A stretch of 63,862 bases of DNA, the filler included. It is 11 parts of 11 records of this genome, joined end to end, with 100 filler letters (N's around TTAATTAATTAA, not from the genome) between each part and the next. Parts side by side here need not be neighbours in the genome. Positions count along the whole stretch, not along the records: positions 45,435 to 50,940 come from SRR7504441_11612; 10 more parts are not named here. One strand, written 5' to 3'. Positions within the stretch are counted from its first letter, which is position 1; every line of letters starts with the position of its first letter. The notes beneath the pieces are model-generated. The model had not been told where the DNA came from and made no database searches. It was given only the letters and a program-made list of their open reading frames with translations. Made by a program: the position numbers and the translations under genes. Of this stretch, positions 19,166 to 59,766 are shown piece by piece.

Positions 19166-19265
19166 NNNNNNNNNNNNNNNNNNNNNNNNNNNNNNNNNNN
19201 NNNNNNNNNTTAATTAATTAANNNNNNNNNNNNNNNNNNNNNNNNNNNNNNNNNNNNNNNNNNNN
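19166..19265. other. Artificial contig spacer
   Basis: N44-TTAATTAATTAA-N44. Confidence 0.99.
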
Positions 19266-19512: not shown

Positions 19513-22500
19513 ATGCGGCATCAGCAAAGCCCATTCGGGTTTTGCCTGACGATTTGGCTGGCGGTGGTGGCGGTATGGGCGCTGGACCCGGCCGAGGGGA
19601 TTCCGCTCGGCCTGGGGGACCAGCTGGCGCTGCTCTCCACCTCCGAGGGGAAGGGGCTTCAATCTGAGATCGACCGCGAGGTCCAGCAGGCCGAGGCGGA
19701 GGAGCGCAAGGAGATGGCCAACGCCCAGCCGGTCCAGGACCAGGTGGCCGAGGCCGAGGCCCACCGGCGCAAGGCGATCCGGGACGCCGACATGCTCAGC
19801 GAGCTCGGGCGGGAGAAGGCCCGGCGCGATCGGGTGGCGGCTGCGGTGGGCGAGAGCCGGGCGGTGACGCGCGAGGTGGACAAGGCGATCGCCGACGAGG
19901 AGCGGGTCGAGCTGGCCGAGCAGCCGGCCCGGACTGGGTTGGGCAAGCTGGAGAAGGAGCTCAAGGAGGCCAAGGCGGAGGAGGCGCAGGCCAAGGCCAA
20001 GGCCGACTCGGAGGTGTCTGTGGTCGAGCAAGAGAGGGCCAAGCGGCGGGCGGCCGCGCGCGCCGAGGCGGGCAAGCTGCAGGAGCAAGCCAAAGCTGAA
20101 GCGCAGGCCGCCCGCGCGGTATCGAAGCAGATGGGCCAGCTGCGCGCCGATGCGACCAACCAGGTGCGAAAGCCGCCCGACGACAGGCATTCTGAGCGGG
20201 CGCCACAGGACGCGCGGGCGCGCCAGGCCGAAGAGGATGCGGAGCGGGCCCGGTCTGCGCTGGAGGCGGCGCGGGGCAAGGCCAGTTCTAAAGTGGAGCT
20301 GCATCGGGGTCGTCTGGCAGAGTTGGAGGGTCAGATGGCCGAGGCCCAGCAGGTGCAGCCTCCCGATTGGTCGGTCGGTGAGCGCTGGTGCAGGTGCTGG
20401 CCGAGGCCACCAGGGCTGCCAAGGAGGCCAAACAGGAGGCGGCTGATCAGGCGAGCAAGCGAGCGGTGGCTCTGACAAAACAGAAGGCCAAGGCAGCACT
20501 CGAGGAGCAGCAAGCTCAGCTGTCTGAGGGAGGGCTGAAGAAGCAACTCGACCGCGCGGCCAAGACAGATGCGCGCGACCTTGCCCAGCTGCAGCAGGCG
20601 GAGCAGAAGGCGATAGCGGGCCGCGGCAAGGCGCAGATCGATGCGGGTGGCTTGTCGCAGCTTGAGACGGCGGAGGCGGAGGCCACTCGGCGGGCCAAGC
20701 GAGCCGGCGCCGGGCTGGCCAAGGATACGGCCGCGCTCGGCGAGCTCAAAAAGGCCCAAAGGCGCAACCAGGACGAGCTTCAGCAGGCCGACTCAGCGCT
20801 CGAAGAGAAACGGGCAGAGGTCCGTCTGGCGCAGGAGCGGGTGAGCAGTCAGTGGAATACCGAGGTCGAGCAGAAGCGGGCGGCGCTCAAAACCGCCGAG
20901 GCCGACGCCAAGGCTGCGGCCAGTAAGCGGAAGCGAGCAGAGGCCGGGCTAGTAGAAACAAGGAAGACAAACGCGCAGGCAATCACAGATCAGAACCAAG
21001 CAGTTGCCACAGCAGCGAGCGAAGTTAGCGCCGCCAAACAGAGCTCGGCCCAGGGCGAGAATGCGGTGATGCGACTCAAGGCGCAGCTGAAGCAGGCAAA
21101 GGAGCACGCAGCTGCAGCGCAGGCCAGTCCGGAGGAGCTCCCACCTGCTGTGCTCCAAGTGCGCGCTAAGCTCAAGGACGAGGAGCGCAAGCTGGCAGCA
21201 GCTAAGGAGACGGAGCAGCAGGCGGCGAGTCAACTGAAGAAGAGTGAGATGGACCATTCGGCACTCGTCAGTAAGGACGCGTCAGCTGTCCGCGAAGCGA
21301 TGCTTGCGGCCAACAGGGCCAAAGCTAACGCGGACTCGGTTGCGGCTGCAGCCAAGCGGAAGGAGGGCTCGGCAGGCAGGCTCGAGCGGGTGGTGGACAA
21401 GCTCGAGTCGGGGGATACTACCTCGCAGAAGCAGTCTTCCGCTGACGCCCAGAAGGTGCGCAAGGAGCTCGCAGCCAATCAAGTCAAAATCTCCACCTAC
21501 GAACAGACGGTCGCTACCGACTCTGCGAGCGAGGGCGCAGTGGCAGCTGCCGGCGAGCGCGAGCTGGCTTCAGCTTCGAAGGAGCTGGAGCAGGCAAGGT
21601 CAGCCATGCACAAGCTGAGGATGCAAAAGGCAATGGCCAGCCAAGTTGCAGACCTTGCAAAGCACACCGCGGCCCAACAGGAATCGGAGCTGAACACGAC
21701 ACTGGCCGAGGCTGTTCAGCTGCAGAAGCTTCGCGAGGTGTTGGACAAGAACAAAGACAAGGGCGAGCTGCTCCGTCGGCAGCTGAGCGCATTGCAGGAT
21801 CAGCTCATGAATGCCCGGGACCAGCTACCGCAGGCAAAGTACAACATTGACGTGGCTTCCCACGAGCTGCAGCAGCAGCGGGCGGCCTCAAAGAGGCTGC
21901 TAAATGGGCCTGGCGCCAAGCTGGAGCTTGTCAAGCGGAAAGAGAAGCTTGAAGCTATTGCTTTTCGGAACGTGAAGGACAAGATGAAGCTTGCGCAGAC
22001 CAACGCAGGAGCAGCGGAGAAGATGATCGCAGATCGGGTAGGACTTGACTGCCCTGGATGCACTAAACTCAAGGTCGACAAGGCCAGGCTCGAGTCAAAG
22101 CTTGAGGTTGAGCAAGATGAGGTCCGCAGAGTGAAGCGCCTGGCCCGAGACAACACCAAACAGGCCAACTGGAACATCAGTTCTGCCACAGCTACTGCCG
22201 CAACTGCAGATCAGAAGCTCAGCTCAGCAAAGGAGGAAGCCACGGAGGCTGCTGCTGAGTTGGAACTAAAGGAGCACTCCGTGGAAGCTGCTCAGAGCGC
22301 CAAGTCAGACGCAGCCGAGCCGCTGCGTCGACTGCATCACAAAATCAACACTTGGAAGGCTAGCAGGGCTTTGGTCAAGCTTAAGAGTGCAGCTCACGTC
22401 AAGGCAGAGCAAAATCAGCAGCTAATGCAGGCTTCAAAGGAAGCTGCGGCCGATGACCTCCTCAAGACGAAAGAAGAATCAGTCAATGCTCAGGCGAAAG

Positions 22501-24937
22501 CAAAGCGGGCTGTGCAGGAGGCACAGGAGCAGAAGAAGGCTTCCGAACTCAAGCTAGATAGCGCAAAGCAAGCCTTGGACAAGCTGAAGAGCCTGATCAA
22601 GGCTGAACGCAGCGCAGCCGCGCAATCTAAGGATAAAGCGATGACAGCCGAGGCCGAAAGTCTGGCAAAGGCTGACAAGCTGGCTGAGCAGACTGATGTT
22701 GCTATTCTGGCACAGAGAAACAATACTCGCAATGATGCTGATGAAACAGCCAAGGCCGATGAAAACAGGCTGCTCGAGGCCAAGAAAGCTGCAGACCAAG
22801 AGATTGAAGGTAAGCAGGCAGAGTTGGCTAAGGCCAGAACTGCTTTGGCACTTGCTGAGGAAAAGCTGAGCAAGGCCACGGCTGCATACGACTCTAAATC
22901 AGCAGACCTGAAGGCAGCGTCGGAGAAGATGCTGCAGTCTCAGTCCGAGATGGAAGACGAGGTGGATCAGGCCAGCCAGAGCTCGAAGAACTCACTCCAG
23001 TTAACCCAGAACAAGATTGCTCGGGTCACCAAGAGGGTCGAAGAGGTCAGGCACCGTGAGGACAAGCTGCAAGCAGAGCGGGAAAAGCTAATTAAGAATG
23101 TTACTGTTGCAGAGGAAGCAGTAGAGCAGGCGAAGGACGCTGCTCGCGCCGGTGAAACAGCAAACAATCTCAAAGTAGAGGCGAAGACTGCCAAGATTTC
23201 CAGCCTGCAGAGCGAGATACGCAGACTAGACGCTGTGAAACTGGACTCAAACACAGAGCGGATGATCAAACTCCAGAAGGAGCAGATGATTATGCAAAAG
23301 GATCTTGCAACCGCCCAAGCTAAAGCAAGCGCCCATAAGCTCAAAACACAGGCTGAGGTCAGCAAACTGCAAGAGCATGCAACAGTGATCAAGAAAGAGC
23401 TGACTCGGTTGGAGAAGGAGATTGCTTCGGCTGTTGCTGAGGGTAAGACTGCCACTGAGGAGTTGAACCAAGTGATTGCGCATGCAAATGATGCCGTGGA
23501 GCGAGAGCTGAGCCACCCTGCACGCGTGCACGAGCACAGGCTGTCGGTCAAAGAGAATAGGCAGGCGGTCCAAGAGGCTACACAGCAGGTGGACGAGGCA
23601 AGGCAAGCCCAAAAGAAGGCCAAAGCTGATGTTGACCAGCTCGTCAAGCAGGAGAAGGATGCCCTGCGCCACAAGCAGGAGGTAGAGGCTACGAGTGGCA
23701 AGCAGGTTGAACGCGTCCACGAGCAGACGCAGTCGTCCATCAAGAGTGCTCAGGAGGCACAAGACCGTGTTAAGAAGGCTGAGACATCGCTGGAGACAAA
23801 GAGAGAAGATCTTGCTAGAAAGACTGCTGCAAAGCTTGATACAATCCGCTCTCAGTTCGCAGACCGTGACGCTGCTGTCAAGGCGCAACACAGTGAAAAG
23901 CTAAAGCAGGTTACTGAGCAGTTTTCTAATGCCACAAAGATGGCTCAAGCTTCGAATCGTGACGTGAAAAAGGCTGCTCTGCGACTCACTGGCACGCTCA
24001 GCACCCAAAAGGATCTGGTGGACAAGGCTGAGTTGAAGTGGAAGGACGCCAGGGATCAAGAAGCTACGGCCATGAGAGACGTCTCCGAGACTGCTGCTGC
24101 AGTTCGCGAAGCCCGGATTGCTATGAGCGAGAAGGAAGCGAATATGCTCAAATTTGTGCACACGCAGGGGGCTGAAGACGCAGCAGAGGCCGAAGCAAGC
24201 TTGGAAAAGAAGCTGGATCAAGCCAAAGATGCAGTTGCAAAGAAGAAAGCTGCACGCGAAGCATATGAATCATTTGTTACTCGTGCAACCAAGCTGGTAA
24301 AAGAAGCGCTCAGTAGTAGAGAAGAGGCCAGCGCAGGGGTGGAACTAGCCCAGCAGGCAAGGCTCCAGCTCCTCGCAGCTGACAATGCTCGGATTCAAGC
24401 CTTAGACAAAGAGCTGCTGCGGACTAGAAAGGACATGGCGCCTGAGATATCTGCGCTCAAACAAGAACTTGATCAGAAGGAGCGAGTAGCAGCCAGTGTA
24501 GCCAAGAAGCAGATTGATAAGGAGCGAACCACTGTGACTCAAGAGTACAGCAAGACGAGTGCGATCTACCAAGATTTAGTCGCGCAAGTGTCAGCCGCGA
24601 AATCAGAACTGGATGAGGTGGAGAAGGACCGCAAGGGCCCTCTGGACATAGCCAGCAACCATCTCAACAAAACTCAGAGTGTGTATGCTGCACTGCAACA
24701 AAAGGTCAAGGAATACAAACGCAAGATGAAATCGCTTCAGACACAACTCGAGACCTCAAACCAGGCTACTGATGATGCAGAATTGGAGCTGAGGCAGGCA
24801 GTGCGCCGCAGCCGGGCTCGTATGTTTGACGACAAGTTGGGTAAACTGGAAGATCGGCTCCGCCAACGCAAATTGGAGCTGATCAAAGCTACAGCCAGCT
24901 CAAAGGAAGTGGGTCTCAAACTATTTGAGCGCAGGAA
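19513..24937 (+). CDS. Very long coiled-coil protein with signal peptide, 3'-partial (over 1750 aa)
   Basis: MRHQQSPFGFCLTIWLAVVAVWA signal followed by A/E/K/Q heptad-rich sequence. Introns near 20164, 20353 and probably 22038-22073. Confidence 0.8.
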
Positions 24938-25037
24938 NNNNNNNNNNNNNNNNNNNNNNNNNNNNNNNNNNNNNNNNNNNNTTAATTAATTAANNNNNNN
25001 NNNNNNNNNNNNNNNNNNNNNNNNNNNNNNNNNNNNN
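24938..25037. other. Artificial contig spacer
   Basis: N44-TTAATTAATTAA-N44. Confidence 0.99.
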
Positions 25038-25303
25038 GCGAATTCTTGTGGCATTTTCGTTTGCAGGCGCCCACGAGGCTTTGGCTGCCCAAGCTGGGCA
25101 CGGCAGCCAGGACGATTACGCAGAGAAGCAGCAGTAATGGTGCCCGAGGCATGTCTCTACCGTGCGATCAGGATGCCGGGCGCACCGCGGTGCCTGTCAC
25201 GCGCCGCCCGATCTGAGACCGATCTTGTGAAGCCACAAAGTTCTGCGATAAAATAATAAAAATCCAGCGTTGCTGCTTCAATTCGCTCAGCACCAGAGCT
25301 TTC

Positions 25304-27361
25304 ATGGGTTCGGCGCGGTGGGTGTCTCTCCTCGGGCTGGGGCTAGCGCTGGGCGCCCCGGGGGCTGGGCGGCCGCCGCTGGGGTACAGCAACTGGAACA
25401 GCTTCCACAATCGCATCAACAGCTCCCTCTTCCTGCAGACCGCACAGTTCATCAACCGATCTGGGCTGCTGGCCGCCGGCTACGACCTGCTCACCCTCGG
25501 CGGGATCGGCTACGCCAACGGGTCCACATACCCGGATGGACGGTCGGGATGGGGCCCGGCTGGTCCGGGCAACATCACCCGCAACTCCAGCGGGTTCCTG
25601 CAGGTGGATCCGGTCAGGTTCCCTGGTGGGAACGCGGGGATGCGAGAGCTGGCCGATGCAGTCCGGCGGCTCGGGTTTAGGTGGGGCAGCTACACCGAGT
25701 CGGGCACCACCGGCTGCAACGGCGCCCGGGGCAGCTCGGAGGGGTTTGAATGGCAGGATGCGGCGCTGTTCTTTCAGGAGTGGCGGTCCGAGTATCTGAT
25801 GGTGGACGCGTGCGGGCTGGAACCGCGCCCTCCTCCGCGTGGACCGCCAGCTGACTGGCCGGCTTGCCTGCACTGCAGCCCGGTTGCTGCGCAGGCGCGC
25901 TGGGAGATGACCCGATGGAGGCAGCTGATCGACCGCTATGTAGCTAACAAGACAGTGCCGGGTGTCGTCCTACATGACTGCCATAACGGCTGTGGCTCCC
26001 CGTTTGGCGGGCCAACCTTGGCCGTGGCGAGCTGTAATGTGAGCGATCCAGCCCAGCAGTGGTCACTCCCGCTGGACGGCAAGGCAGGCGGGCTGACCAA
26101 CGGCCTGAACGGCATGTGCGTGGGCTGCGCATCTTCGCCGGTGGCTGACTCGCAAGTCAACGGCACGGCATGTGCCAATGATGCAGAGATCCGCCGGGAG
26201 GGTGCGGGGCTCGGGCTGCAGGCTTGCTTGCTCGGGCCATCCAGCAACGGCCGGATGGACAGCAGACCTGTGCGCGCTTTTGGGATTGGGGCAGCCCAGC
26301 AACTTTGGAACTACTCCCACGGCAGAATTGCCCAGTCAGACTCTTGCCTTGCGCTGGCCAGCCAGGGCCTGGCCGTTGTCAAGACAAGCTCCGGTTGCTC
26401 TGCCAGCGCCGCCCGGTGGGTCGCCCAGCCAGTGGCCAGTGGGCTGCACCAGTTGAGATCGGCGGCCAAAGCAGGGATGTGCCTGAGCGCAGCCGGGCTT
26501 GAGGTGGTCCCGCCGGTGGACCCATGGTGCATTGGGAACAACAACATGTGGCGAAGCAACACTGATACCCTCCAGAGCTGGACTCGTGTGATGGTTGAGG
26601 TCGAGAGCATGGCCAACCAAGGGCACATCTCGAGGCCCGGCAGTTGGTCTTTCGCCGACTGCCTGGAGCTTGGAGTCCCAGGAAGCAACTCACTCACCTG
26701 GGAGGAGTCTAAAACCAACCTGGCCCTGTTTGCGGTCACCTCTAGCCCACTCATCCTCGGGAACGACCCTCGCGAGGGCCGGATGCAGCCCAGGCTGCTC
26801 TCTCTACTGACCAACCCAGATCTGCTCGCTGCTGACCAGTACTACAGCACTACACACGCCTTCGCCGGGGGCAGAATTGCCTCCTGGCCGGTCGGGCGTG
26901 AGCTGTGGGCTAAGCCTCTCGCTGACCACACTGCGGCGGTTGTGCTGTTTAACCGCGCGGGCACTGCGCTGGGTGAGCGAGTGGAGGCTGCGGGCCCGCT
27001 CCCGCCACACTGCGCTGATCCGAACTCGATGCTCGCCCCCTGCACTGGGTGCTTCCTGAGGGCTGACCAGCCTTGGACTGCCCCCTGCAACGACAATGTG
27101 ACTGCTTCGTCGGGTGCCCAGTGGCTGACTCTCACTCTGGACTGGCTGCCTCGTGCGTGGCTGATGCCAGATGGCACAGGGTCGTTTGATTGTGACGTGT
27201 TCGATATCTTCGCCAGTGCAGCTAGAGGTGCAGCGATAGGCCGGACTGTATCCGGTTCGTGGTCGGCTGTTGTGCCACCACATGGTGTGAGGTTTCTGAG
27301 ACTTTCCAATTGCTCAGGAGATCTGTCGGCTGGTACTAGTATTATAAAAAAACACTCGTAA
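25304..27361 (+). CDS. Secreted GH27 alpha-galactosidase-like enzyme with inserted ricin-B-like domain
   Basis: Signal peptide, PPLGYSNWN, DPVRFPGG, YTESGTTGC, YLMVD (nucleophile), MWRSNTD (acid/base), SPLILGND and C-terminal VPPHGVRFLRL. QQW ricin repeats at about 26014-26500. Confidence 0.9.
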   Translation: MGSARWVSLLGLGLALGAPGAGRPPLGYSNWNSFHNRINSSLFLQTAQFINRSGLLAAGYDLLTLGGIGYANGSTYPDGRSGWGPAGPGNITRNSSGFLQVDPVRFPGGNAGMRELADAVRRLGFRWGSYTESGTTGCNGARGSSEGFEWQDAALFFQEWRSEYLMVDACGLEPRPPPRGPPADWPACLHCSPVAAQARWEMTRWRQLIDRYVANKTVPGVVLHDCHNGCGSPFGGPTLAVASCNVSDPAQQWSLPLDGKAGGLTNGLNGMCVGCASSPVADSQVNGTACANDAEIRREGAGLGLQACLLGPSSNGRMDSRPVRAFGIGAAQQLWNYSHGRIAQSDSCLALASQGLAVVKTSSGCSASAARWVAQPVASGLHQLRSAAKAGMCLSAAGLEVVPPVDPWCIGNNNMWRSNTDTLQSWTRVMVEVESMANQGHISRPGSWSFADCLELGVPGSNSLTWEESKTNLALFAVTSSPLILGNDPREGRMQPRLLSLLTNPDLLAADQYYSTTHAFAGGRIASWPVGRELWAKPLADHTAAVVLFNRAGTALGERVEAAGPLPPHCADPNSMLAPCTGCFLRADQPWTAPCNDNVTASSGAQWLTLTLDWLPRAWLMPDGTGSFDCDVFDIFASAARGAAIGRTVSGSWSAVVPPHGVRFLRLSNCSGDLSAGTSIIKKHS

Positions 27362-28445: not shown

Positions 28446-28545
28446 NNNNNNNNNNNNNNNNNNNNNNNNNNNNNNNNNNNNNNNNNNNNTTAATTAATTA
28501 ANNNNNNNNNNNNNNNNNNNNNNNNNNNNNNNNNNNNNNNNNNNN
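28446..28545. other. Artificial contig spacer
   Basis: N44-TTAATTAATTAA-N44. Confidence 0.99.
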
Positions 28546-34197: not shown

Positions 34198-34297
34198 NNN
34201 NNNNNNNNNNNNNNNNNNNNNNNNNNNNNNNNNNNNNNNNNTTAATTAATTAANNNNNNNNNNNNNNNNNNNNNNNNNNNNNNNNNNNNNNNNNNNN
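34198..34297. other. Artificial contig spacer
   Basis: N44-TTAATTAATTAA-N44. Confidence 0.99.
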
Positions 34298-38849: not shown

Positions 38850-38949
38850 NNNNNNNNNNNNNNNNNNNNNNNNNNNNNNNNNNNNNNNNNNNNTTAATTA
38901 ATTAANNNNNNNNNNNNNNNNNNNNNNNNNNNNNNNNNNNNNNNNNNNN
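38850..38949. other. Artificial contig spacer
   Basis: N44-TTAATTAATTAA-N44. Confidence 0.99.
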
Positions 38950-41900
38950 GCTGATCTTCGGTTAGGTTCGTCGGGTTTACGATCATCTTCCTGCTGGCGC
39001 ACCAGGTCAAGTCTATTGTGGCTGAGAAGCAGCTTCGTATAAAAGAAGGTCAGCAGCGCTCGGCCGGCCGGTCGCTCACAGGTTGGGCAGGCATGCTCAT
39101 GATGGGACTCAAGAGCAGCGTGTGGTGGATGAGCTGGTTCGCAATCTACTTCGCCATATACGCGCTGGTCTCCCTGCTGGTCACCGCCGCCGCGTACGCG
39201 ATGCTGTTTCGTGAGGCGAACTTCCTGATCGTGTGGGGGTTCATCTTCACGTTCTTGATCTCCGTAATGGCGCTTGGAATGATGATTTCGGCCGTCTTCC
39301 TGGACCCCGGCACTGGCGCCATAACGGCCATATTCGTCTACCTGCTCGGCATATTCGCCCCATCGGCTCTTATCGGGCTCCAAACCACAGGCAAACTAGT
39401 GCTCTGTGTGCTTGTGTCGCCATTCGCGTTCTATTGGGGTCTGGCCATCTTAGGGAGCTACGAGGGTGCGGCACAGCCGATCGATTTCGACACGCTCGAG
39501 GCGGTTGAGGAGGTCGGCCGTGAGGATCCGATCAAGCTCACGACCTACTGGCTTGTGCTGCTGATAGATGTCGTGTTCTACATGCTGCTCGCTATCTATT
39601 TCGACCAGGTGCGCTATATTTAGACCAAGCTTGACACCGGTGCAGGTGGTACCCGGCGAGTTCGGCCCAAAGCGGCCGGCCTGGTTCCTCTGCCTTCCGT
39701 CGTACTGGCGAAGCTGCTGCTGCTCAGATGAGCCTCAGGAGGAGCCTGATGAGGGCACCGCGGGCGAGGAGCGACCTCTGTTGGGACACGCGCAGGCTGG
39801 GTTCGACCCGAAGCTGTTCCAGCCGGTGGATGAGACCAAGCTGGGCAGCCCCGCGATCAAAGTGAGGGGGCTGCGGAAGGAGTTCAGATCGCTTGGATTG
39901 ACCAAGGTAGCGGTTGAGGATTTCAGTTTGGACGTGTATGAGGGCCAGACGACCGCGCTGCTCGGGCATAATGGGGCGGGCAAGAGCACTACCTTCAACA
40001 TGCTCTCGGGGCTGATCCCGCCCACCCAGGGCGACGCGCTAGTTTATGGCAAGTCAATCACCCGCGATCTGGCGAGCGTTCGCTCGAATCTGGGGACTTG
40101 TCCGCAGGTGCGGCGGCCCGGCGGTTGCCGGGGCTGATGGTTGGGACAGCATGATGTGTTGTGGGACATGCTCACTGTGATCGAGCATTTGAAGTTGTTT
40201 GCGGGCCTCAAAGGCGTCCCAGACTCGATGCTTGACGCTATGTGCGATGAGACGATCACAGCAGTCGGGCTCTGGGAGAAACGGGACCAGTTCAGCGCAA
40301 CGCTCTCGGGAGGGCAGAAGCGCAAGCTGAGTATAGGCATGGCGATGGTAGGCAACTCACGGGTTTTATTTTTGGACGAGCCCACCTCTGGGATGGATCC
40401 TTACTCTCGCCGGGCGGCCTGGAGTGTGATCAGTCAGCACAAGCAAGGACACGGTGCGGCCTGCTGGCGGCGCTGGCTCTGAGGTGTGGATGGGCAGTTG
40501 TGATCTTCACCACTCATTTCATGGACGAAGCAGGTGACTGGCTGCTCATGTGAGTTGTGCTGAGGGGCTGGCTGTGCAGATCTACTGGGCGACTGCATCG
40601 CAATCATGTCGGAGGGCCGGCTGCGGTGCTGCGGCGACTCACTGTTCCTCAAGAAATATTGGGGAAGCGGGTATTTACTGACAATCAGCAAGAAAGTGGG
40701 TGTCAGCGCAGATCAAGAGAGTGAGCTCTCTGAGCAGCTTAGGAGTGCAGTGAAACGTCACGTGCCACTAGTGAACCTGAGCAAGGACTGTGTCGAAGCA
40801 GGGGCTGAGATGAGAATCAAGCTCCCCAAGGGCGGCACCCCGCAAGAGGAGGAGGAGCTCACCAAGCGACTGTTGGAGCTTTTTGTCGAGCTTGATCAGC
40901 TCAAGCAGGACTCTGCGATGGACTCGTGGGGCGTGTCGATGACCACCCTTGAGGAAGTATTCCTAGCCCTTGCAGAGAGCGAACGGACCATTCCAGAGAA
41001 GCAAAAGATCACATCTGGAGCCGGGCAAGTGGGCGAGCGCGAGCATGCAGCGTTTGGCGACCACTTCTGGGCCATTTTTGTGAAGCGGTTCAGGTCGGCT
41101 ACAAGGAATCAGTTTAATGCTTTGATGCAGATTGTGGTGCCACTTATTTTCATTCTCTTTGGATGCGTTGCGGTCAAATATGGGATTGCTTCAAACGACA
41201 ACAACATTGATCTGAACGCTAGCCAGTTCAACAGTCCTCTGTATATCCCATATTCTTGCACATCCTCTGCCGGTGGAGGAACCACGAGTAGCACGACAGC
41301 CAATTGTCCAGCTGATCAAGTCAGCACTCTGTCTTCTGGGGACACCAGCACTTTTGGTACAGACATTGCTAGCATGTCTCCTAGTACTCAGTTCACATGC
41401 AGCAGCAGCTATCGAGACACCGATCGAGTGGCTTACAACTGGGCCTTTGCAGACAAACCACACCTCACTGTGAGAGATCAGCGTGGCATCTATGCTGGAG
41501 GAAGTACAGGAGATCCTCAGGCTGTGGCTGGCGTGCTCACGGGCTCTTGCGTCCAGGACAACACATGCACTGGCTCGACGGTGGGGCTGTCGACAGGCGA
41601 GAGCGTCTCAATCCCAAACTTATATCAGTGCAACTCAGATACGAGCGATGTGGTCAAGATGTCCAACTACCTGTACCAGCAACGCTCGAGTGGCCAGGAC
41701 GGCAAATCCAAGTATGGGTCTCTACAGTTCAATTTCGACACCACCGCTGCCCAGCCTGTGCAGGCTTACAGCTATCTAGTGCAGTCGAACGGCTCAGCTA
41801 CGTTTGGTTCCGTCACTTATGCAAACATGGCCAATAATTTGCTTCTGAGGAAGCTCACAGGGTTGAGCACAGCTAGTATATCGTTGTCCATGCAAGCAGG

Positions 41901-44607
41901 CCCTGAGACTCATGCTGAAAAGGGCGTGGCAAAGCAGACAGTGGCACTCGTAATGTCCTTTTTCCTGATTATTGCATTCTCTATGGTGGCTGCCACGTTC
42001 ATATATGACTTGGTGATCGAGGTCCGAGTCAAGTCTAAGCACTTGCAGATGATCTCAGGATGCAGCCCTCTGGCATACTGGCTGGCAACGTACCTGTTTG
42101 ACTTAATCTACTACAGCGCAGCCGTGTGGGGAACAATTCTTATGGTGATTATCTTTGAGCAAGAGCAATTCTACAAAGAGAGCCAGTTCGCGCCCTTCTT
42201 AATTGTGTTTGTTGCCTATGGGCTTGCATGCATTCAAGTGACGTACGCACTCGTTTTTGCCTTCAAGGACGAGAACAATGCATTGGTATTTGGCATATTC
42301 TTTTATGTGTTTTGCGGGTTTCTGCTTTGCCTTCTGTCGTGGATGTTGAAGGGCATTGATCATAGCACGCGCGATGCCAACGAAGTAGTTCAGTATGTGC
42401 TTTACCTCTCTCCCCAGTATGCAATGGCAACGGGCATTTTGAATCTTCAGGAATACTACTACGACAAAGCGTTCGATGCACCTTCGTGCAAATGCAGTTA
42501 TAGCAGCCCATGGGATTTTGGCGTGACCGGCACTGCCATCACATATCTGCTATTGGAAGCAGTTTTCTTCTTTCTTGTAGTGCTCTGGGTCCAGAAATCC
42601 TCCACCAGCTTTGGTGGCTACATTACTTCGAGTCCGCATCCCCCGACTGAGCCCGAGATCGAGGTCGACATCGATGTGAGAGCAGAAGCCGTGGAACTCG
42701 ACGCCCTGGGCGATTTGAACCAGCTACCGGCTCATGTGTTTGACGAAAATCCGATTATAGTCAGGCATCTCCGTAAGGTATACCCGGCCCGAGGGAATTT
42801 CGCCTCGAAGGTTGCTGTCAAGGACGTCTCTTTCAAGGTTCCGGCTGGGAATGTGTTTGCCTACTTGGGTGTGAATGGGGCGGGTAAGACAACTTCCCTG
42901 TCGATCTTGTCGGGAGAGTTGCCTCCAACCAGTGGCGAGGGGCGGCTCGGAGGGATGGACATGCTCACGGAACGGGAATCGATCAACAAGATCATGGGCT
43001 ATTGCCCTCAGTTTGACGCGCTGTTCCCGTTACTCACAGGCAAGGAGCACCTGTACATGTATGCCAGGATCAAAGGAATTCCGAGTGAGGCCGAGGACGA
43101 AGTAGTCGAGAACATGATCAAGCTGATGGACCTGACTGACCACTGCGAACGACAAGCAGGCGGTTACTCTGGTGGCAACAAGCGCAAGCTGTCTGTCGCA
43201 ATTGCGCTGATGGGCAACCCGAAGATTGTCTTCCTTGATGGTAAGCTTACCTGCCTTTTGAAATGTGTAGCTGACACCGTGCTTGCTGCAGAGCCGTCCA
43301 CTGGAATGGATCCAGAAGTGAAACGCTACATGTGGCGGGTGATTTCTAGCACAATGGCTGGGCGCTCTGTCATCCTGACTACGCACTCCATGGAGGAGGC
43401 AGAGGCGCTGGCTCAGATCATAGGGATCATGTCTGCTGGTAATCTGCGGTGCATCGGATCCAACCAGCACTTGAAGGTCCCGCCTGCTTACCTGCCTGCT
43501 GTATGACTCCTGGCGCTGCAGGCTAGATTTGGGAAAGGGTATACTTTAGAGATTCGATGCGAGGAGGAGGCCAATCAAGGGATTCAGCAGTGGATGACTC
43601 AAACCTTCCCCAAGACAGACGCGAACAACGGAGCCAGGCTCGAGGAAGACTTAGATACCCAGCTCAAGTATCACATCCCCACCGATGGGCTATCACTGTC
43701 ACATGCCTGGGCTCTGGTAGAGCAGGGCAAACACGAGCACGGGGTGAGTGAGTATGTCATCACTCAAACTTCACTCGAACAGCTCTTCCTCAAGTTCGCT
43801 CCTGACCAGGAGGAGCCAGACCTGGATAATGCAGCGCTGGTCGCAGCATCTAGACATCCAGTGCCTAACTGCATCGACATGTTACTGTGCCGACCCGAGA
43901 GAGTCTACGAGTGGCATGTGACAGTCGAGAGCGAGGAGCAGCCGCTGCTGGTCAGGGTCGAGTTTGCTAGCGGGGCATGCCCCTGGTGCGACACCTGCGA
44001 CAACCGTGCGGTGGTCACAGTGAATGGTTCGCCTGTAATGCGGCTCGACGAGGAGGGCAGAGAGACAGACGAGGAGCTCGAGTTGAGTGGAATCGCCAAC
44101 CCTGGATGTGGCCTGAGCAGCTGCTGCGGTTGTACCAGCTGCTGTGGTTGTCAACGGATGGTGTGCTGTCGAGACGACCGGAACTGCTTCAGGCACTCGG
44201 GCAAACTATTCGAGCTCATCGACTACAATGAAATCCCATGCAGCACGCGCGCCCGACCAGTGTGGCTAATGGTTGACGGCAAAGAGGCCGATTCAGGCGT
44301 CTCGCGCAGATCATTCATGGCAAGTGTGTTTGAGCTGGCTGGGCAGAAATATTGCTGCCTGGTTGGAGTCCCACTCACCCTGGTGCTCATTCTAGGAATC
44401 TTGTGCATCACGAAGGGGGGTTGGTTGCTGGCGCTCCCAGCACTGAGCTGCCTGGTGCTATCTGGGATATATTGCATCTGTGGCAACTATTATGGTCGGC
44501 CGGCTCACTACCGAAACAGCTCGGACCTGCTCGAAGTGGCTGTCGATGTGCCTCCAGTACCGCCTCCAGGAGGCATGCTAATGCCCCCTTATGTTGACCC
44601 GGCGTGA
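38950..44607 (+). CDS. ABCA: ABCA-subfamily full transporter, 5'-partial, with extra C-terminal module
   Basis: TMD1-NBD1 (GHNGAGKST, LSGGQKRKL, LDEPTSGMDP) and TMD2-NBD2 (GVNGAGKTT, YSGGNKRKL, TTHSMEEAE). Introns 39049-39090, 39609-39645, 40108-40149, 40454-40497, 40534-40579, 43241-43291 and 43477-43521 restore the consensus motifs. Confidence 0.97.
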
Positions 44608-45334: not shown

Positions 45335-45434
45335 NNNNNNNNNNNNNNNNNNNNNNNNNNNNNNNNNNNNNNNNNNNNTTAATTAATTAANNNNNNNNNN
45401 NNNNNNNNNNNNNNNNNNNNNNNNNNNNNNNNNN
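45335..45434. other. Artificial contig spacer
   Basis: N44-TTAATTAATTAA-N44. Confidence 0.99.
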
Positions 45435-46862
45435 AGCAGCCAGGAGGGCGGCGCGAGAAGAGGCCAGGCAGGCTGCGGAAGCAGAGGTGGTCAGGAGGGC
45501 GGCGCAAGAAGAGGCAGCTAGGAGGGCCGAGGAGGAGGAGGTAACTGCCAGATGGGCCGCAGAGCAGGCAGCCGAAGCCCGCCGATCGAGGATGGCGGCG
45601 ATCGAGGATGTCGAACAAGAACTAGCCGCTCTTCAGGCGCTGGATAGGCAACAGAACGCCCAACGTGAGGCCCACAAAGAGCGGGCTGAGAGCGAACGCC
45701 GAAAATCGAAATTGACCCTGGCCGAGCGGGCACCCCAACCGCCGCCCGTGGTAACGGCAATGGAGAGTCCCCAAGACCATTTGATGGACCAGGAGCTCTC
45801 CAGGCTGCGGGCCGAGCTGGCCACTGAGGGCTTGCTGGCGGCCGATATAGGCCCGCTCAGCGGCGAAGCGCTGGTGGGCGCGGCCGAGAGGAACGCGGCC
45901 ATGCTCCACCAAGCCGCCCTGGCCGCCCGGCAAGCCGCCGACGAGGCTGTTGGGAGCAAGCAGCACAGGACTGCAGAGCAGGCGGCCGCTGCGGCCACCA
46001 CACGAGCGCGCCGGGCGGGTAACGCGGCAGCGCTGGCTCGGGCGGCGTGGGAGCGGCGGCCGGCCGACGATCCGGTCGAGCTGTCGCCGCCGTCGAACGA
46101 GGAGCGGGCGGGGTGGCTTCTGCCGGTGAGCCTACCCTAACCCTAAAGGTGGGCTGGCCTTACGGGCGTGGCAGGTCTGGATCTGCGCGGTGGACACAGT
46201 GGCGCGCCGGGCGATGGGGATGCGCTGGGCGGTCCGGAACTTCCGGCTCAACTGCATGCGGTTCTGGCGCTGCCAGGTCTCAAGGGAGGAGGCCGACCTC
46301 GCGTTCAGTGAGCTGCACCGCTCGATCTCGCCGCGCTCCACCCCCGAGCTGCCCCGGGCTCAGCACCCGCCGCCCCCGGTAGTCGAGTTCGATCTCCCGC
46401 ACGCGTGCCACTCGCCGGATGACGACTCGAGCAGGCACTCCGGCCAGCTTGCGAGGATCCGGCACAAGATTCGACACATCCAGGTGCCCCGGGCCCAGCC
46501 GGCGGCCGACCAACCAGCAGGCGCACCGGCAGAGTCCGCCGGATCCCGGGCGGCCTGTGCGGGTCCAGCTGCTCCGTCACAAGCTCAAGCTCAAGGAGAG
46601 CGAGCTGCCCGAGCAAGCACTGTGGGCCAACCGGCCCAACCCGACGCTGCTCGAGGCGGCTCGCCAGAGCACCACTGTGGCCGAGCTGGAGCGGCTTCGG
46701 CAGCGGCTGGTGGAGAGGGACGAGGCCGAGGCCCCGGAGGAGCTGCGCGAGGCTTTGTGGTGCGAGGCGCAGGCGGATGCGAGGGAGCGGATGGAATCGG
46801 CGCGGCGGAGGTTCGACCAAAGAGCCGAGCAGGCCGGGGTACTGCTCGAGCCTGGCTACTGA
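45435..46862 (+). CDS. Hypothetical coiled-coil protein, 5'-partial
   Basis: ORFs 45487-46140, 46190- and 46419-46862 are joined by short GT-AG introns. Confidence 0.55.
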
Positions 46863-47066
46863 GCATGGGTATAGATATATATCCTAAACCGAGCTTAGTT
46901 GCTCGCTTTTTGTACATTATTGTGTTATTGTATACATACTTAATTACGAGTATTCATATGAATGTGAAATCAAGCTTGAAATTGTAAAACGACTAAGTCT
47001 TGTAGGCGCGTACGTATGATGTACATACATCTCAGGTGGACAGGTCTGACCGTCCGACTGGATGGA

Positions 47067-47840
47067 TCAGGCCTCGTACGGCCAGTAGAGCACGCCCTCG
47101 CTGCCCTGCAGTTTGGTCTCGAGCAGCCACTTGAGGTTTTGCTCGTCGATTGTGCCGTTGCCGTCGACCAGCCTACGGAACTTGTAGTGGTGGAACATTG
47201 TTTCCGGCGTCCTCACCAGCAGCTCGCCCTCGTTCGCATCGTTCAGCGCCAGGTTTTTCCAGGGCGGCAGGATCCAGGTGTCCCGGTGCCACTCGCGCCC
47301 GGCCTGCTCCTTGTATATCCGCAGCTTGGCCCCCAGCCGGCCCTCGATGTCCAGCCAGTACGGCAGCCCGGTGCTCGAGCCGACCACCCGGCAGCCGGCT
47401 CCGTCCTCCAGCGGCTTGTTCCGCCCGCCGGGGCAGATGAACCTGTTTCTGTACCGGGCCAGCTTGACCATCTTGGCCAGCACGTATCCGTCCCCGTACG
47501 GACTGCCCGGTTCGGCCGGGTCGCCAGGGCCGGACTGGAAGGTGAGGTCCCACATGTCGCTATCGAACTGGATCTGGGTGCCGGCCTCGTTCTCGACCAG
47601 GTTGTAGCACCGGGACGAGTCCACCCAGAGCGCCGGCTTGAGCCCGTCGAACGCGAACACGCCCTTCATCGGAAAGTCAGCCCAGTCCGGGTGCTCGGCC
47701 AGCGGGCCGCGCATGCTCTCGCTCTCGAGGAACTGCCTGATCTCCGTATGCGGCATCAGCTCAGGCTGCGGCATCCGAGCGAACAGCACAGACACCCCGC
47801 ACGCCAGCGCGGCAACGCCCAGCCCGATCGAGAGTAACAT
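47067..47840 (-). CDS. Hypothetical secreted/type II membrane protein
   Basis: MLLSIGLGVAALACGVSVLFA followed by a globular-looking domain; intronless, with high GC at third codon positions. Confidence 0.7.
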   Translation of the reverse strand: MLLSIGLGVAALACGVSVLFARMPQPELMPHTEIRQFLESESMRGPLAEHPDWADFPMKGVFAFDGLKPALWVDSSRCYNLVENEAGTQIQFDSDMWDLTFQSGPGDPAEPGSPYGDGYVLAKMVKLARYRNRFICPGGRNKPLEDGAGCRVVGSSTGLPYWLDIEGRLGAKLRIYKEQAGREWHRDTWILPPWKNLALNDANEGELLVRTPETMFHHYKFRRLVDGNGTIDEQNLKWLLETKLQGSEGVLYWPYEA

Positions 47841-47894
47841 CCGGCCGCGCTGTCGGCCGCGCAAAACGCGGCTGCGGTCCGCAGCTGCAGCTCG

Positions 47895-49358
47895 ATGGAC
47901 CGGCACTCGCTGCGCCAAGTGCTGCTGCTGATCCCGGCGCACAGCAGGGTGGCCGGCCGCCGGGGCGGGATGTTCGCGGTCTGCGCGCTGGTCTGCCGCG
48001 CCTGGCGGGAGGGTTGCGCAAGGCTGGCCGAGGATTGGCCGGTCCCGGCCGGCTTCTGTCCGGGCCCTCAGAGGGAGGTGGTCACGGTGCAGCTCGGGCA
48101 GGCCGGGAACCGGGTAGGGGCCCAGTTCTGGCGGGCGATAGGCCTGGAGCACCGGCTGGACCCGGAGAGCGGGGCGAGCGGGGACGGGGACTGCGAGCAG
48201 CTAGCGGTTTACTACCAGGAGGACGGCCGGGGCCGGTACCTGCCCCGGGCCGTGCTGGCCGATCTGGACCCCGCGGGGCTCGACCGGCACCGGGGGCAGC
48301 TGTACAGGAGGGACGGCCTGGTCACCGGGGCCGGCGGCGCGGCCAACAACTGGGCCAAAGCCCGATACGGCGACGGGGTGACAGAGCAGGTACTCGACTG
48401 CGTCAGGCGGGAGGCCGAGCGGTGCGACAGCCTGCAGGGCTTCCAGCTGTGCCACGGGCTCGGAGGCGGCACCGGGAGCGGGCTCGGGGCCCGGCTGCTG
48501 GCCGGGCTGCGCGACGAGTTTGGGTCCAGGATAACTCTCAGCTTCCCGGTGCTGCCCTCGCCGACCGTATCGGACTGCGTGGTCGAGCCGTACAATGCGG
48601 TGCTGTCGATGCCCAGCTTGATTGGGTCGGCCGACGGGTGCGTGCCGCTGGACAACCAGGCCCTGCACCAGCTGTGCCGGTCCTGGCTGCCCGACCCAGC
48701 CATGGGCGACCTGAACAGGTTGGCAGCTCGGGCAATGGCCGAGGCCACCTGCTCGATCAGGTTCCGGTGCGGGCTCTCGCCGGACCTGCGCAAGCTGGCC
48801 GCCAACCTCTGCCCGTTCGCGCGGGGGCACTTCCTCTCGTGCTCGCTCGCCCCGCTCACAGCGCAGGCTGTTCCACCGCACACGATCGAGATGCGAGCTC
48901 AGCTGTTCAACCGCAGCCACTTTGTGTCGGGGATAGACCCCAGGCACGGCCGGTTCCTGGCGCTGCAGACCATGGACAGAGGTCAAGTGTCGTTTGAAGA
49001 GCTGGCGACCAGGCTCCTCTCGCGAAACTCATCGCTGTTCGTCGAGTGGATCCCAAACTTGACCAAAAGCGCCTACTGCCGCGTGCCGCCGCCGGGGCTC
49101 CAGAAATCCGTTAGCCTGCTGGGCAACTCAACTGCCATCCAGGAGGTGCTCAGGCGGCTCGCTGCCCAGTTTAGCGCTTTGCACAACCGTAGGGCGTTTC
49201 TGCACTGGTACACCGCAGAAGGGATGGACGAGCTTGAGTTTGCCGTTGCGGAGAGCGAGCTCGCCAGCCTGATGGATGAGTACCAGGTCTGGCAGGACGC
49301 CACAGCAGACGACACCGACGACGAATCGTGGTTATCTGATTCATCTTTCGATTACTGA
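47895..49358 (+). CDS. TUBB: F-box-like motif fused to a divergent beta-tubulin
   Basis: aa 1-45 SLRQVLLLIP..AVCALVCRAWRE. From 48072: REVVTVQLGQAGN, NNWAK, GGGTGSG, VVEPYN, DLRKLAANL, DPRHGR, FVEWIPN and AFLHWYTAEGMDELEF..EYQ..QDAT (beta-type). Confidence 0.92.
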   Translation: MDRHSLRQVLLLIPAHSRVAGRRGGMFAVCALVCRAWREGCARLAEDWPVPAGFCPGPQREVVTVQLGQAGNRVGAQFWRAIGLEHRLDPESGASGDGDCEQLAVYYQEDGRGRYLPRAVLADLDPAGLDRHRGQLYRRDGLVTGAGGAANNWAKARYGDGVTEQVLDCVRREAERCDSLQGFQLCHGLGGGTGSGLGARLLAGLRDEFGSRITLSFPVLPSPTVSDCVVEPYNAVLSMPSLIGSADGCVPLDNQALHQLCRSWLPDPAMGDLNRLAARAMAEATCSIRFRCGLSPDLRKLAANLCPFARGHFLSCSLAPLTAQAVPPHTIEMRAQLFNRSHFVSGIDPRHGRFLALQTMDRGQVSFEELATRLLSRNSSLFVEWIPNLTKSAYCRVPPPGLQKSVSLLGNSTAIQEVLRRLAAQFSALHNRRAFLHWYTAEGMDELEFAVAESELASLMDEYQVWQDATADDTDDESWLSDSSFDY

Positions 49359-49618
49359 TACTCCATTTTACGAGTAGATACCCGATCGAGTACTTGTGGG
49401 GTAAGATTCCTAAGTCTCGTCAACAGAATTAAGGCATCGGCTACTAATCAGTTACTAATCGGCTGTATATTATTAATCAGGTCGCACGTTAGTTACAGGA
49501 GAGTGTCGGGAGCGCGGGAGTTCGCACAAAAACCGCGTCAACGAAGAAGGAGAGCCTCAACTGACTGCAACGGAATACCGTTCGGAGCCGAGCGGATCTT
49601 CACACGTCCCGCCAAGAG

Positions 49619-50940
49619 ATGGAGGAGAACCTGCTGAGCGAGGTCGAGATGCAGCAGGCGGGCGGGGTTGAGCCGAGCTCTTCGGGCGCCGGCTCCGGGC
49701 TCTCCCAATGGAGCTGGATCGGCAAGCTGGGGCTCGGGCTCGGGTTGGTCGGGCTCTCGGTCGGGCTGGTGGTGGCTGCAGCCACCCGAGACCAGCCGAG
49801 CCGCTCGCCGGCTACATATGACCCTGAGCTGCTCCAGGGGCTGGTACTCTGGCAGCTGAGCAATATGTTCTATCCAACCCAGATGTATGACGCCCCGCCG
49901 GTTGGCCCCGCGACGACTGGCACCCCAGGGGGGGGAGGGAAGGGCGGGATGTATAACGCGCCGGGGGTCGCTCGGTACGAAAAGGTCAAGAACCAAGCCG
50001 CCCCAATTTTGGCCAGAGGCGGGCACGACGCGCTGGGCTCGGCGGGCTTGAGCTCGCTCATTGTGGACCAATCCGCTGATGGGCCGCGCTGGGCGGTGAT
50101 CGACCTCGACTCCGACGCCGGGCGCATGGTCATATTCCGAGGAAGCACCACGGCGGCGGATGCCGCCATCGACAACAGCAAGACAGTTCTTCCTGCGGCT
50201 GGGGGGCTGCCGGCATTACACCTGGCCGCCAACGATCGGCTCATGCAGGCCCAGCCGCTGTGGGACGCTCTCAGCCGGGGCAGAACGTCCAAACTGTACG
50301 TGGCTGGCCATTCTCTTGGCGGCGAGCTTGCTATGATCCTGTACGTCCAACTCAAGATCGGGCAAAGCGCTCAGGCCAAGCAGGTGCTCGCAGCCGTGCG
50401 CGGCCCGATAGAGGTGACTGTATTTGGCGCCTCCCCGCCGTTCCGCTCGAAGCCAACCGGTCGAGTGGCCGATGTGCTCAAACTGGTGCGCTTGTATGTG
50501 AACAACTATGACTTCGTTCCTCGGATGGGCCAGACTTTTGGGCCGCTTGTGAGCCCTGGGACCACCTCTAAGGTTGTGCTAGCTCTTGAAAATTACTCAC
50601 ACGAAAATGGGGGAGACTACGACCCGTGGTACGGCCCAGTGGATGTCTGGTGGATGCAAGGCAGGGGGCCAGTCGGCGGTGGACAGGTCAAGCTGCACCG
50701 CTCGTATCAGCACCAGCTTCACTACTCGTCGCCAGCCGAGATGGGCCTGACTGCAGCCGACCCCCCACCGCCCAAATGCCCGCCTCGCGCCAAATGGAAG
50801 CCAGATCAACTGGCCTGGGTGGCAAGGAGTGAAGAAGAGTGCCTGCCGGAAGGCACCTCCGTATTCGCCAAATCCATAGCTGAGATACTGATATACACGC
50901 TGAAGAAAGTGTACAACTACGACGCGGACCCCAAACTGAT
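49619..50940 (+). CDS. Class 3 lipase with N-terminal TM anchor, 3'-partial
   Basis: VIFRGS, YVAGHSLGG, VFGASP and NNYDFVPR motifs. Confidence 0.9.
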
Positions 50941-51040
50941 NNNNNNNNNNNNNNNNNNNNNNNNNNNNNNNNNNNNNNNNNNNNTTAATTAATTAANNNN
51001 NNNNNNNNNNNNNNNNNNNNNNNNNNNNNNNNNNNNNNNN
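50941..51040. other. Artificial contig spacer
   Basis: N44-TTAATTAATTAA-N44. Confidence 0.99.
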
Positions 51041-59666: not shown

Positions 59667-59766
59667 NNNNNNNNNNNNNNNNNNNNNNNNNNNNNNNNNN
59701 NNNNNNNNNNTTAATTAATTAANNNNNNNNNNNNNNNNNNNNNNNNNNNNNNNNNNNNNNNNNNNN
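59667..59766. other. Artificial contig spacer
   Basis: N44-TTAATTAATTAA-N44. Confidence 0.99.

Follow-up and report, generated by a model that had tools for sequence, protein, structure and literature searches.

The window, the whole 63,862-nucleotide stretch of DNA analysed here, carries an open reading frame (ORF) of 487 codons plus a TGA stop (47895..49358, + strand) that encodes a divergent beta-type tubulin, P0001. This protein belongs to the Tubulin/FtsZ superfamily and to the beta class, and stands far from canonical beta-tubulin, with an identity to the canonical consensus of 51% (208 of 407 positions), 17 residues deleted at six sites, no insertions, and an added N-terminal extension. 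With about even confidence we regard it as a beta-like tubulin that is functional, evolves fast and is restricted to its lineage, a noncanonical beta isotype that would bind GTP and may pair with alpha-tubulin in a specialised lattice. A first-pass annotation of the same DNA had instead described a non-polymerising tubulin able to dock on or cap alpha-tubulin, which we consider rather unlikely.

A divergent tubulin of the beta class

Aligned with beta-tubulin using MAFFT and hmmalign, the ORF shows no insertion and no frame break. The tubulin body begins at R60 (base 48072) and, by Pfam, HMMER against PDB chains, hmmalign and AF2, spans residues 60-467, equivalent to beta 2-426 (48072..49295, +). 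Pfam Tubulin (PF00091) matched residues 61-261 (E 1.2e-48; 166.3 bits, cut-off 33) and Tubulin_C (PF03953) residues 310-422 (E 1.5e-17; 64.3 bits, cut-off 26.6). HMMER returned 171 distinct PDB chain sequences at E <= 1e-10, the best 60 of which were all beta-tubulin, and the best match (E 1.7e-132) aligned residues 60-474 with beta 2-433. Matches to beta-tubulin reached ~437-445 bits at 50% identity, and those to alpha-tubulin ~255 bits at 36%. At 122 alpha/beta-discriminating positions the protein carries the beta state in 52, the alpha state in 8 and another residue in 62. Likewise, the equivalent of Lys252 is kept (LRKLAAN in helix H8), where alpha-tubulin has its catalytic Glu, and the alpha-type S9-S10 insertion, present in the alpha row P0176, is absent.

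The AF2 model, built from a 98-row alignment, has a pLDDT of 89.4, with blocks of the body mostly >90 and the lowest, 71, at residues 371-380. The top 50 Foldseek matches were tubulin-complex entries with TM 0.92-0.94 on target length, and the sampled chains were beta-tubulin. A FastTree phylogeny of 93 rows (13 hand-picked rows from 101 canonical ones, and all 80 divergent rows including the query) placed the protein on the beta side, and an IQ-TREE LG+C20 quick search with 45 of these rows supported the alpha/beta split at 100; gamma, delta, epsilon and zeta tubulins were not entered in the trees by name. The end branch of the window protein measures 0.86, compared with 0.05-0.2 for canonical rows, and arises from an unresolved bush of divergent beta-like tubulins.

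Canonical beta-tubulin (PDB 6u0h_B, 6u42, 1jff-type) shares with the window protein its fold (TM 0.94), the GGGTGSG, NNWAK and VVEPYN motifs, Lys252 and the lack of the S9-S10 insertion. However, against a canonical-beta profile (445 positions, which follow sequential beta numbering) the protein scored only 473.5 bits, about half of the roughly 950-990 of canonical beta-tubulins and near the ~435 of canonical alpha-tubulins, and it also departs from canonical beta in its missing MREI N-terminus, its loop lengths, the loss of Tyr/Phe281 and the lack of a Glu-rich EGEF tail. It does have the traits of noncanonical beta-like tubulins, namely derivation from beta, a long branch, changes in the nucleotide pocket and contact surfaces, and the absence of tail motifs.

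Loop deletions, motifs and pocket changes

The gaps agree in three alignments (HMMER pairwise, MAFFT with 14 canonical beta-tubulins, and hmmalign to the canonical-beta profile), and every loop shortening that the first-pass annotation had read by eye, in the M-loop, H2-S3, H1-S2, H6-H7 and H10, was recovered in all three, together with a sixth site at the start of H3 that was additional to its list. On the + strand, two residues are missing from the H1-S2 loop (beta 43-44, GDGDC^EQL, 48180..48203), four from the end of H2 and the H2-S3 loop (beta 78-81, DRHR^GQLY, 48282..48305), two from the start of H3 (beta 110-111, GDG^VTEQ, 48369..48389), two from the H6-H7 loop (beta 214-215, CRSWLPDP, 48675..48698) and three from the end of H10 (beta 332-334, TRLL^SRNSS, 49008..49034), the last coinciding with the block of lowest pLDDT. 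The segment comprising the end of S7 and the M-loop, APLTAQAVPPHTIEM (48849..48893, +), is four residues shorter than in canonical beta, contains two Pro and has no Tyr/Phe281; its gap covers beta 281-283 and 285, with Tyr281 lost or, in the MAFFT alignment, replaced by His.

The motifs reported as retained are all present: GQAGN in the T1 loop (48096..48110, +, by hmmalign), NNWAK as the core of T3 (48345..48359, +; whole loop GGAANNWAKA), an intact T4 GGGTGSG (48462..48482, +), VVEPYN as the core of T5 (48579..48596, +) and AFLHWY in the H11-H12 loop (49194..49211, +). The altered T7, RFRCGLSPD (canonical-beta differences within FRCGLSP), was likewise seen as claimed, and together with the H8 motif LRKLAAN it occupies 48759..48806 (+). 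To these we add C12A (canonical GQCGN in T1), G98A and G104A in T3, Y222M, E410V and D417S. At the start of H7 (MGDLN, 48702..48716, +, by hmmalign) Met replaces the base-stacking Tyr/Phe222 and Asn226 is kept, and in H12 (FAVAESELASLMDEYQVW, 49239..49292, +; 8/15 conserved residues kept) E410V and D417S stand beside a retained E421. The C-terminal tail, DATADDTDDESWLSDSSFDY (49296..49355, +), is Asp/Ser-rich, with one Glu, no EGEF and a terminal Tyr.

Distribution of the divergence

Conservation was taken from 71 canonical beta domains (>900 bits, covering profile positions 2-428); where conservation in beta reaches 90% or more, the window protein keeps 181 of 315 positions. Structural elements were delimited by secondary-structure ranges that we take to be those of the published beta-tubulin structure. 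The best-kept elements were T4 (8/8), S2 (5/5), H8 (6/7), the H11-H12 loop (13/16), T5 (8/10), T3 (7/9) and the H10-S9 loop (10/13, including EWIPNL at 49044..49061, +), and the least-kept were S3 (1/5), H4-S5 (1/4), H9 (2/7), H10 (2/6), S7 (2/6), H4 (4/11), T6/H6 (4/11), the M-loop (3/8), T7 (3/7), H1-S2 (8/18) and H3 (9/18). Grouped by face, the nucleotide loops keep 36/47 residues compared with 145/268 for the rest (p 0.004), the plus-end face 32/47 compared with 149/268 (p 0.15), the minus-end face 21/33 compared with 160/282 (p 0.58), the lateral elements 23/50 compared with 158/265 (p 0.087), and H11 with H12 on the outer face 15/28 compared with 166/287 (p 0.69).

Substitutions are thus almost evenly distributed across the surface, the GTP pocket alone being clearly spared, which makes GTP binding, as proposed at first pass, a fair expectation from the retained residues. 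The same annotation had held that divergence was targeted to lateral contacts and had named an even spread as the result that would speak against this; the spread found is nearly even, and the claim does not stand for substitutions. Only the indels concentrate in lateral elements, which contain 12 of the 17 deleted residues, and indels are in any case tolerated only in surface loops. Of 199 substitutions, 61 are to Gly, Ala, Arg or Pro and 17 away from them, with 64 away from Phe, Tyr, Met, Ile, Asn or Lys and 11 to them, and the content of Gly, Ala, Arg and Pro is 34%, compared with 24% in the consensus. This bias suggests that much of the divergence reflects relaxed constraint under GC pressure rather than targeted remodelling.

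How common such loop losses are was gauged in 50 other divergent beta-like rows from among the best 150 representatives, these being the 93 tree rows minus the query, 14 canonical-clade rows and 28 alpha-side rows (by midpoint root, and including a few beta-like ones). At least two gaps were present in the M-loop in 22/50 rows, in H1-S2 in 11/50, in H10 in 8/50, in H6-H7 in 5/50, in H2-S3 in 3/50 and at the start of H3 in 3/50, and Tyr/Phe281 was kept in 15/50 and Lys252 in 32/50. M-loop erosion is the rule in this divergent class, and its extent in the window protein is above average.

Predicted pairing with alpha-tubulin

Residues 60-475 were folded together with residues 1-437 of a canonical alpha-tubulin (P0215), a stand-in from another organism. 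The complex scored 0.81, compared with 0.00 for the best of three controls, with three runs agreeing in at least 90% of contacts and a partner pLDDT of at least 85; the mark passed was reached by 51/78 solved complexes and 2/108 mismatched pairs (39/65 and 2/126, respectively, for eukaryotes). The predicted contacts involve residues 96-102, 175-184 and 394-407 of alpha-tubulin (T3, T5 and the H11-H12 loop) and residues 293-309 (T7/H8), 355-356, 384-391 (H10-S9 loop) and 466-473 of the window protein. The modelled geometry reproduces the usual intradimer pairing, with the window protein standing where beta-tubulin would. Docking on alpha-tubulin, as first proposed, is therefore supported by the complex model, but through the minus-end intradimer face (T7, H8 and the H10-S9 loop) and not through the plus-end face to which it had been ascribed.

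These results bear directly on the model of the first-pass annotation, which we widen to a protein that binds GTP, makes no lateral bonds, does not polymerise and sits on alpha-tubulin or on a microtubule end, where it would serve as cap or sequestering partner or would poison the lattice. Consistent with it, both lateral sides are truncated (the M-loop by four residues and without its aromatic, H2-S3 by four, H1-S2 by two and the start of H3 by two), deletions are predominantly lateral and exceed those of peers, H12 is altered at E410 and D417, the tail has a single Glu, the nucleotide loops are retained, and binding to alpha-tubulin is supported by the complex model, with the proviso that this may merely echo solved dimers. 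However, substitutions are not laterally concentrated, the M-loop is shortened in almost half of the peers, Tyr/Phe281 is kept in only 15/50 of them, and Tetrahymena thermophila BLT1 and BLT4, with such loops, are described as polymerising and building spindle microtubules (PMC3382179). Furthermore, the plus-end face, for which a terminal cap would have no need beyond GTP binding, is well kept, with 13/16 in its H11-H12 loop, and the predicted alpha contact lies on the intradimer face. None of our results shows microtubule capping, and we rate this model as rather unlikely compared with a noncanonical isotype that still enters a lattice.

Coding signature and evidence for constraint

GC contents at the three codon positions of the ORF (GC1/2/3) are 0.67/0.49/0.86, and the 258 bases past the stop have a GC content of 0.49 and are aperiodic (3' flank up to the next ORF, 49359..49618, +, without codon periodicity). 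Codon usage correlates with that of the other window ORFs at 0.75 in frame, compared with 0.27 and 0.46 out of frame. Overlapping wrong-frame or antisense ORFs of 223-327 amino acids (48014-48997, +; 48201-48986, -; 48212-48883, -) have a GC peak that lies at codon position 1 or coincides with the third position of the tubulin frame, and are explained as by-products of 65% GC. Retention in the tubulin body follows constraint: the protein keeps 105/146 (72%) of pan-tubulin positions, where the residue is common to beta and 17 alpha-tubulins, 76/169 (45%) of beta-only positions and 27/109 (25%) of variable positions (pan-tubulin compared with beta-only, Fisher p 1.5e-6).

Seven RNA runs from four studies, all marine or seawater metatranscriptomes, contained 5-10% of sampled words, shares (0.05-0.10) which for habitat mean only that the sequence is present in marine samples. 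Aligning one run per study to the gene (four runs) gave six RNA-library pieces of 137-151 nucleotides with 0-2 mismatches and no joints, drawn from all four studies, at 47900-48050, 48397-48547, 48579-48726, 49119-49255, 49132-49282 and 49275-49429. Together these pieces account for 687 of the 1461 coding bases; uncovered stretches such as 48051-48396 and 48727-49118 are uninformative. Three of the four differences within the ORF are synonymous (P 0.049 for at least three of four), and the sole indel, of 4 bases at 49383, lies past the stop. Shorter pieces of 33-40 nucleotides with 3-4 mismatches, at 48410-48475 and 49193-49240, were set aside as conserved tubulin words of other organisms.

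Taken together, these signatures indicate a real, constrained gene, and neutral decay is unlikely. The first-pass argument that in-frame indels speak against simple decay is borne out, with all deletions in frame, retention that tracks constraint and a codon signature that persists. Very improbable, in our estimate, is that a duplicated beta-tubulin under relaxed constraint is drifting to loss, open and perhaps transcribed, with no function of its own. Such drift would accord with the low profile score (473 bits), the altered pan-tubulin positions (41/146), the substitutions that follow GC pressure and the empty orthologue searches; moreover, DNA of 65% GC readily gives long ORFs, as the open wrong frames here show, and Findeisen et al. 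(2014; PMC4202323) place some intact tubulin ORFs with improbable substitutions among possible pseudogenes. Against it stand the graded retention, the persistence of a high GC3 and in-frame codon usage beside non-coding DNA of ~0.49 GC, six or seven deletion sites that are all multiples of three, the lack of any stop in 487 codons, the conservation of T4, S2 and H8, and the predominance of synonymous changes among environmental variants.

The N-terminal extension

Upstream of the tubulin body lies an extension of 59 residues (47895..48071, +), supported by codon statistics and one RNA-library piece. The frame is open from 47838, with in-frame Met residues at codons 1 and 26 (the latter at 47970). 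Since the canonical tubulin start (…GPQ-REVV…) lacks a Met, at least 34 extra residues are obligatory. Over its 177 bases GC1/2/3 are 0.75/0.59/0.90, and codon usage correlates with that of the neighbours at 0.78 in frame, compared with 0.37/0.29 in the other frames; on the opposite strand GC is highest at position 1, mirroring the + frame. The RNA-library piece at 47900-48050 is colinear and unspliced, with one synonymous difference. Because of these codon statistics and the colinear piece, the extension (34-59 residues) was taken as translated. An intron in this 5' region was also considered, as several GT...CAG pairs would allow in-frame splicing to 48072, and was rejected given the colinear piece and the GC3 of 0.90, although the evidence is thin.

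AF2 predicted two helices in the extension, at residues 3-17 and 25-47, with a pLDDT of 50-69. F-box-like and F-box accounted for two of four faint Pfam matches (E 0.13 and 0.4), and when the first 66 residues were scanned alone, this likeness reached E 0.04 and 14.1 bits, below the Pfam cut-off of 24.3. The likeness lies in 11 residues, LVCRAWREGCA, of which LVCRAWRE resembles the VCKRW core of the third helix of F-box proteins (PF00646 / PF12937), whereas the LP motif with which these proteins start is absent and every threshold is missed. In a language-model search of the Atlas, five of the 30 nearest clusters had a named family, all of them F-box, with scores of 0.75-0.81; matches <0.9 are a lead only, as shuffled proteins reach 0.8 a third of the time. 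A phmmer search of the extension against PDB gave no F-box chain. The F-box likeness is thus a weak lead and does not amount to membership.

A degenerate F-box joined to a tubulin body might act as the receptor of an SCF ubiquitin ligase that uses its tubulin fold to grip alpha-tubulin, a tubulin partner or a tubulin chaperone, with the GTP site and intradimer face kept for free alpha-tubulin and the trimmed lateral loops serving to avoid the lattice. The faint Pfam matches, the unanimity of the named language-model families and the coding-like, helical character of the extension favour such a fusion; the sub-threshold scores, the shortness of the match and its missing LP motif, the negative PDB search, a prediction of two long low-confidence helices in place of a three-helix F-box, and the lack of any such fusion among the 12 listed of 4,071 matching papers in a full-text literature search all weigh against it, and we judge it very improbable. 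If true, it would provide a direct link of tubulin pairing to tubulin turnover. The chance is slighter still that the extension is an organelle-targeting presequence or signal-like leader and that the tubulin acts outside cytosolic microtubules. Its composition (8 Arg, 8 Ala, 4 acidic residues, net charge +4), the predicted helices of amphipathic length and the hydrophobic codons 27-34 (FAVCALVC) would suit a leader, but this is a matter of composition, and no relative with the same leader was found.

One other divergent beta-like tubulin, P0150 (468 residues, from a public contig), also has an N-terminal extension, of 33 residues (…FPTEIINLILCYC…), and a four-residue M-loop deletion at the same place; in the trees it lies apart from the window protein. 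Its extension (FPTEIINLIL...) appeared F-box-like by eye and was discounted, as it gave no Pfam F-box match.

Relatives of the window protein

Within the databases searched, the gene is an orphan and lineage-restricted. A word-index phmmer search scored 8000 candidates, of which 4901 had E <= 0.001; identity among the best 120 was at most 51%, and the top ranks were two-domain gene-model fusions of canonical beta-tubulin. A HMMER scan of 1.84 billion representatives at 50% identity, a library that may conceal relatives clustered with canonical beta, gave 12749 matches; among the best 150, full-length rows reached at most 51%, and the few at 53-55% were fragments of 278-414 residues with partial cover. 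The exact protein, as 487 residues or from Met26, was not in a 15-billion collection. Among the matches listed, no orthologue above the canonical background was found other than P0145, and a profile of P0001 and P0271 singled out only P0145/P0271 (959 bits, compared with ~600 for canonical single-domain rows).

This nearest relative, P0145/P0271 from a public assembly, is only 44-45% identical to the window protein. Both trees made it the sister of the window protein, with unstarred support of 93 and 90. It shares the motifs LADLDPAGL, AANN in T3, ADGCV, NLCPF and SLAPL, has a three-residue gap at the same H1-S2 site, and is also GC-biased. In contrast to the window protein, it has a full M-loop with Tyr, an unshortened H2-S3, a four-residue S9-S10 insertion and, two residues ahead of its tubulin body, a Met. 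Since both rows were flagged for odd composition, the sister pairing is tentative.

The window and neighbouring genes

The window consists of 11 separate pieces and is not continuous genome. Ten identical spacers (44 N, TTAATTAATTAA, 44 N) lie at 4794-4893, 15958-16057, 19166-19265, 24938-25037, 28446-28545, 34198-34297, 38850-38949, 45335-45434, 50941-51040 and 59667-59766, GC per piece ranges from 0.53 to 0.68, and neighbourhood between genes on different pieces is not established. Scans of the whole window with Rfam and for tRNAs gave no matches, and neither did an NCBIfam scan.

The tubulin gene lies on a 5.5-kb piece (45435-50940), together with two coiled-coil-like ORFs (45436-46859, +) for which a Pfam search gave no match, an orphan ORF of 257 residues (47070-47840, -) and a class-3 lipase ORF (49619-50940) that is cut by the end of the piece. 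The orphan ORF has a hydrophobic N-terminal anchor (MLLSIGLGVAALACGVSVLFA), a GC3 of 0.91 and strong codon periodicity, with no match in Pfam, NCBIfam or the ESM Atlas, and is arranged head to head with the tubulin gene, its ATG being 54 bp from the tubulin ATG. We saw no tie between these neighbours and tubulin function. Immediately upstream of the tubulin gene, CGCAGCTGCAG (47880-47894, +) stops 4 bases before the ATG, and its GCTGCAG is also the 3' end of a putative intron in an ABCA gene described below. It could be the acceptor of an intron in the 5' untranslated region or of trans-splicing, which, if true, would relieve the tight 54-bp gap between it and the divergent gene.

On another piece, an ABCA-type transporter ORF (40564-43506) resumes in the same frame at 43522. 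The 45 bases at 43477-43521 (+) start with GTCCCG, end with GCTGCAG and contain an in-frame TGA, and are probably an intron of this gene; a Diphylleia ABCA protein spans it as a single tblastn match (41728-43800). Another short intron is suggested by a further change of frame near 39611-39643. The best relatives of the ABCA gene have 44% identity (Diphylleia rotans 40%), which gives no close lineage and may not even apply to the tubulin contig. The DNA comes from a marine eukaryote that is rich in GC and has short introns, for which the databases searched gave no close relative. Elsewhere in the window, a 1535-codon open frame at 20382-24986 (+) matched no Pfam family (best E 0.094), and its coding status is doubtful, as GC3 (0.63) is not above GC1 (0.65); an ORF at 25217-27358 (+) encodes an alpha-galactosidase (Melibiase_2, E 1e-20) with a ricin-B lectin domain (E 1.4e-5).

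Discussion

Our favoured explanation is that the window protein is a working noncanonical beta-like tubulin. On the strength of its conserved nucleotide loops it would bind GTP, and by the complex model it would pair with alpha-tubulin as the beta subunit, through T7/H8 and the H10-S9 loop of its intradimer face. The well-kept plus-end face (T3, T5 and the H11-H12 loop) suggests that longitudinal contacts may still be possible. The lateral bond has been trimmed from two sides, in the M-loop and in its counterpart of H1-S2, H2-S3 and the start of H3, and the motor-binding H12 and the acidic tail are also changed. Because the lateral partners are trimmed and H12 and the tail are changed, the protein might be expected, by analogy with BLT1/BLT4, to enter a specialised polymer or lattice outside the axoneme in which side bonds are altered, rather than to be a general lattice subunit or a dedicated cap.

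BLT1 and BLT4 of T. thermophila are the closest described parallel. Pucciarelli et al. (2012; PMC3382179) report C12A, G98E, Y222L, Q245L, S248A, Y281F/C and extensive H3 changes, with the BLT1 M-loop 'almost completely substituted' and no tail modification motifs, and place these proteins in micronuclear spindles and macronuclear microtubules (PMC3382179; review PMC9294176); the base-stacking role of Y222 and the definition of the EGEF axoneme motif used above come from the same source. Going by these descriptions, the window protein resembles them in being derived from beta and far from canonical, in C12A and in changes at G98, Y222, Q245 and S248, in the absence of the axoneme motif and poly-Glu tail, and in having both longitudinal faces substituted. 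It differs in that the changes reported for the BLTs are substitutions and one Ser insertion, whereas the window protein has lost 17 residues in six loops and gained an N-terminal extension, and in that the BLTs are described as assembling into nuclear spindle and macronuclear microtubules, whereas the window protein is known from sequence alone. BLT sequences were not identified among the compared rows, and the likeness is one of published description.

Several points weigh against this interpretation. Residues were assigned to faces by beta-tubulin secondary structure and sequential numbering, not from coordinates, and T7, which belongs to the alpha-binding face, is poorly kept. The complex was built with a stand-in alpha-tubulin and without custom alignments, and its high score may echo alpha/beta dimers already solved, which are among the most often solved complexes, and so denote likeness rather than binding. 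A short M-loop together with a short H2-S3 was found in only 2/50 other rows, and the total of 17 gaps compares with a median of 7 over 51 rows, the window protein included; because of this total and the rarity of the pair, lateral bonding may after all have been lost. The altered pan-tubulin positions include non-conservative changes (P87R, L150R, H190P, G244C, E410V). RNA-library pieces indicate presence, not strand, and are not proof of transcription, since DNA carry-over is possible. Finally, selection was inferred from a single sequence.

Protists and metagenomes hold many divergent beta-like tubulins, of which, to our knowledge, almost none has been studied. The window protein is an ordinary object of this kind, a noncanonical isotype, with unusual details, and gives no grounds for proposing a new mechanism of capping. 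It is an extreme case in its 51% identity to canonical beta, in the shortening of both lateral sides and in its obligatory N-terminal extension. If the pairing with alpha-tubulin holds, it would constitute a natural experiment on how far lateral contacts can be reduced, and on what a tubulin whose GTP site and longitudinal faces are intact does in their absence.

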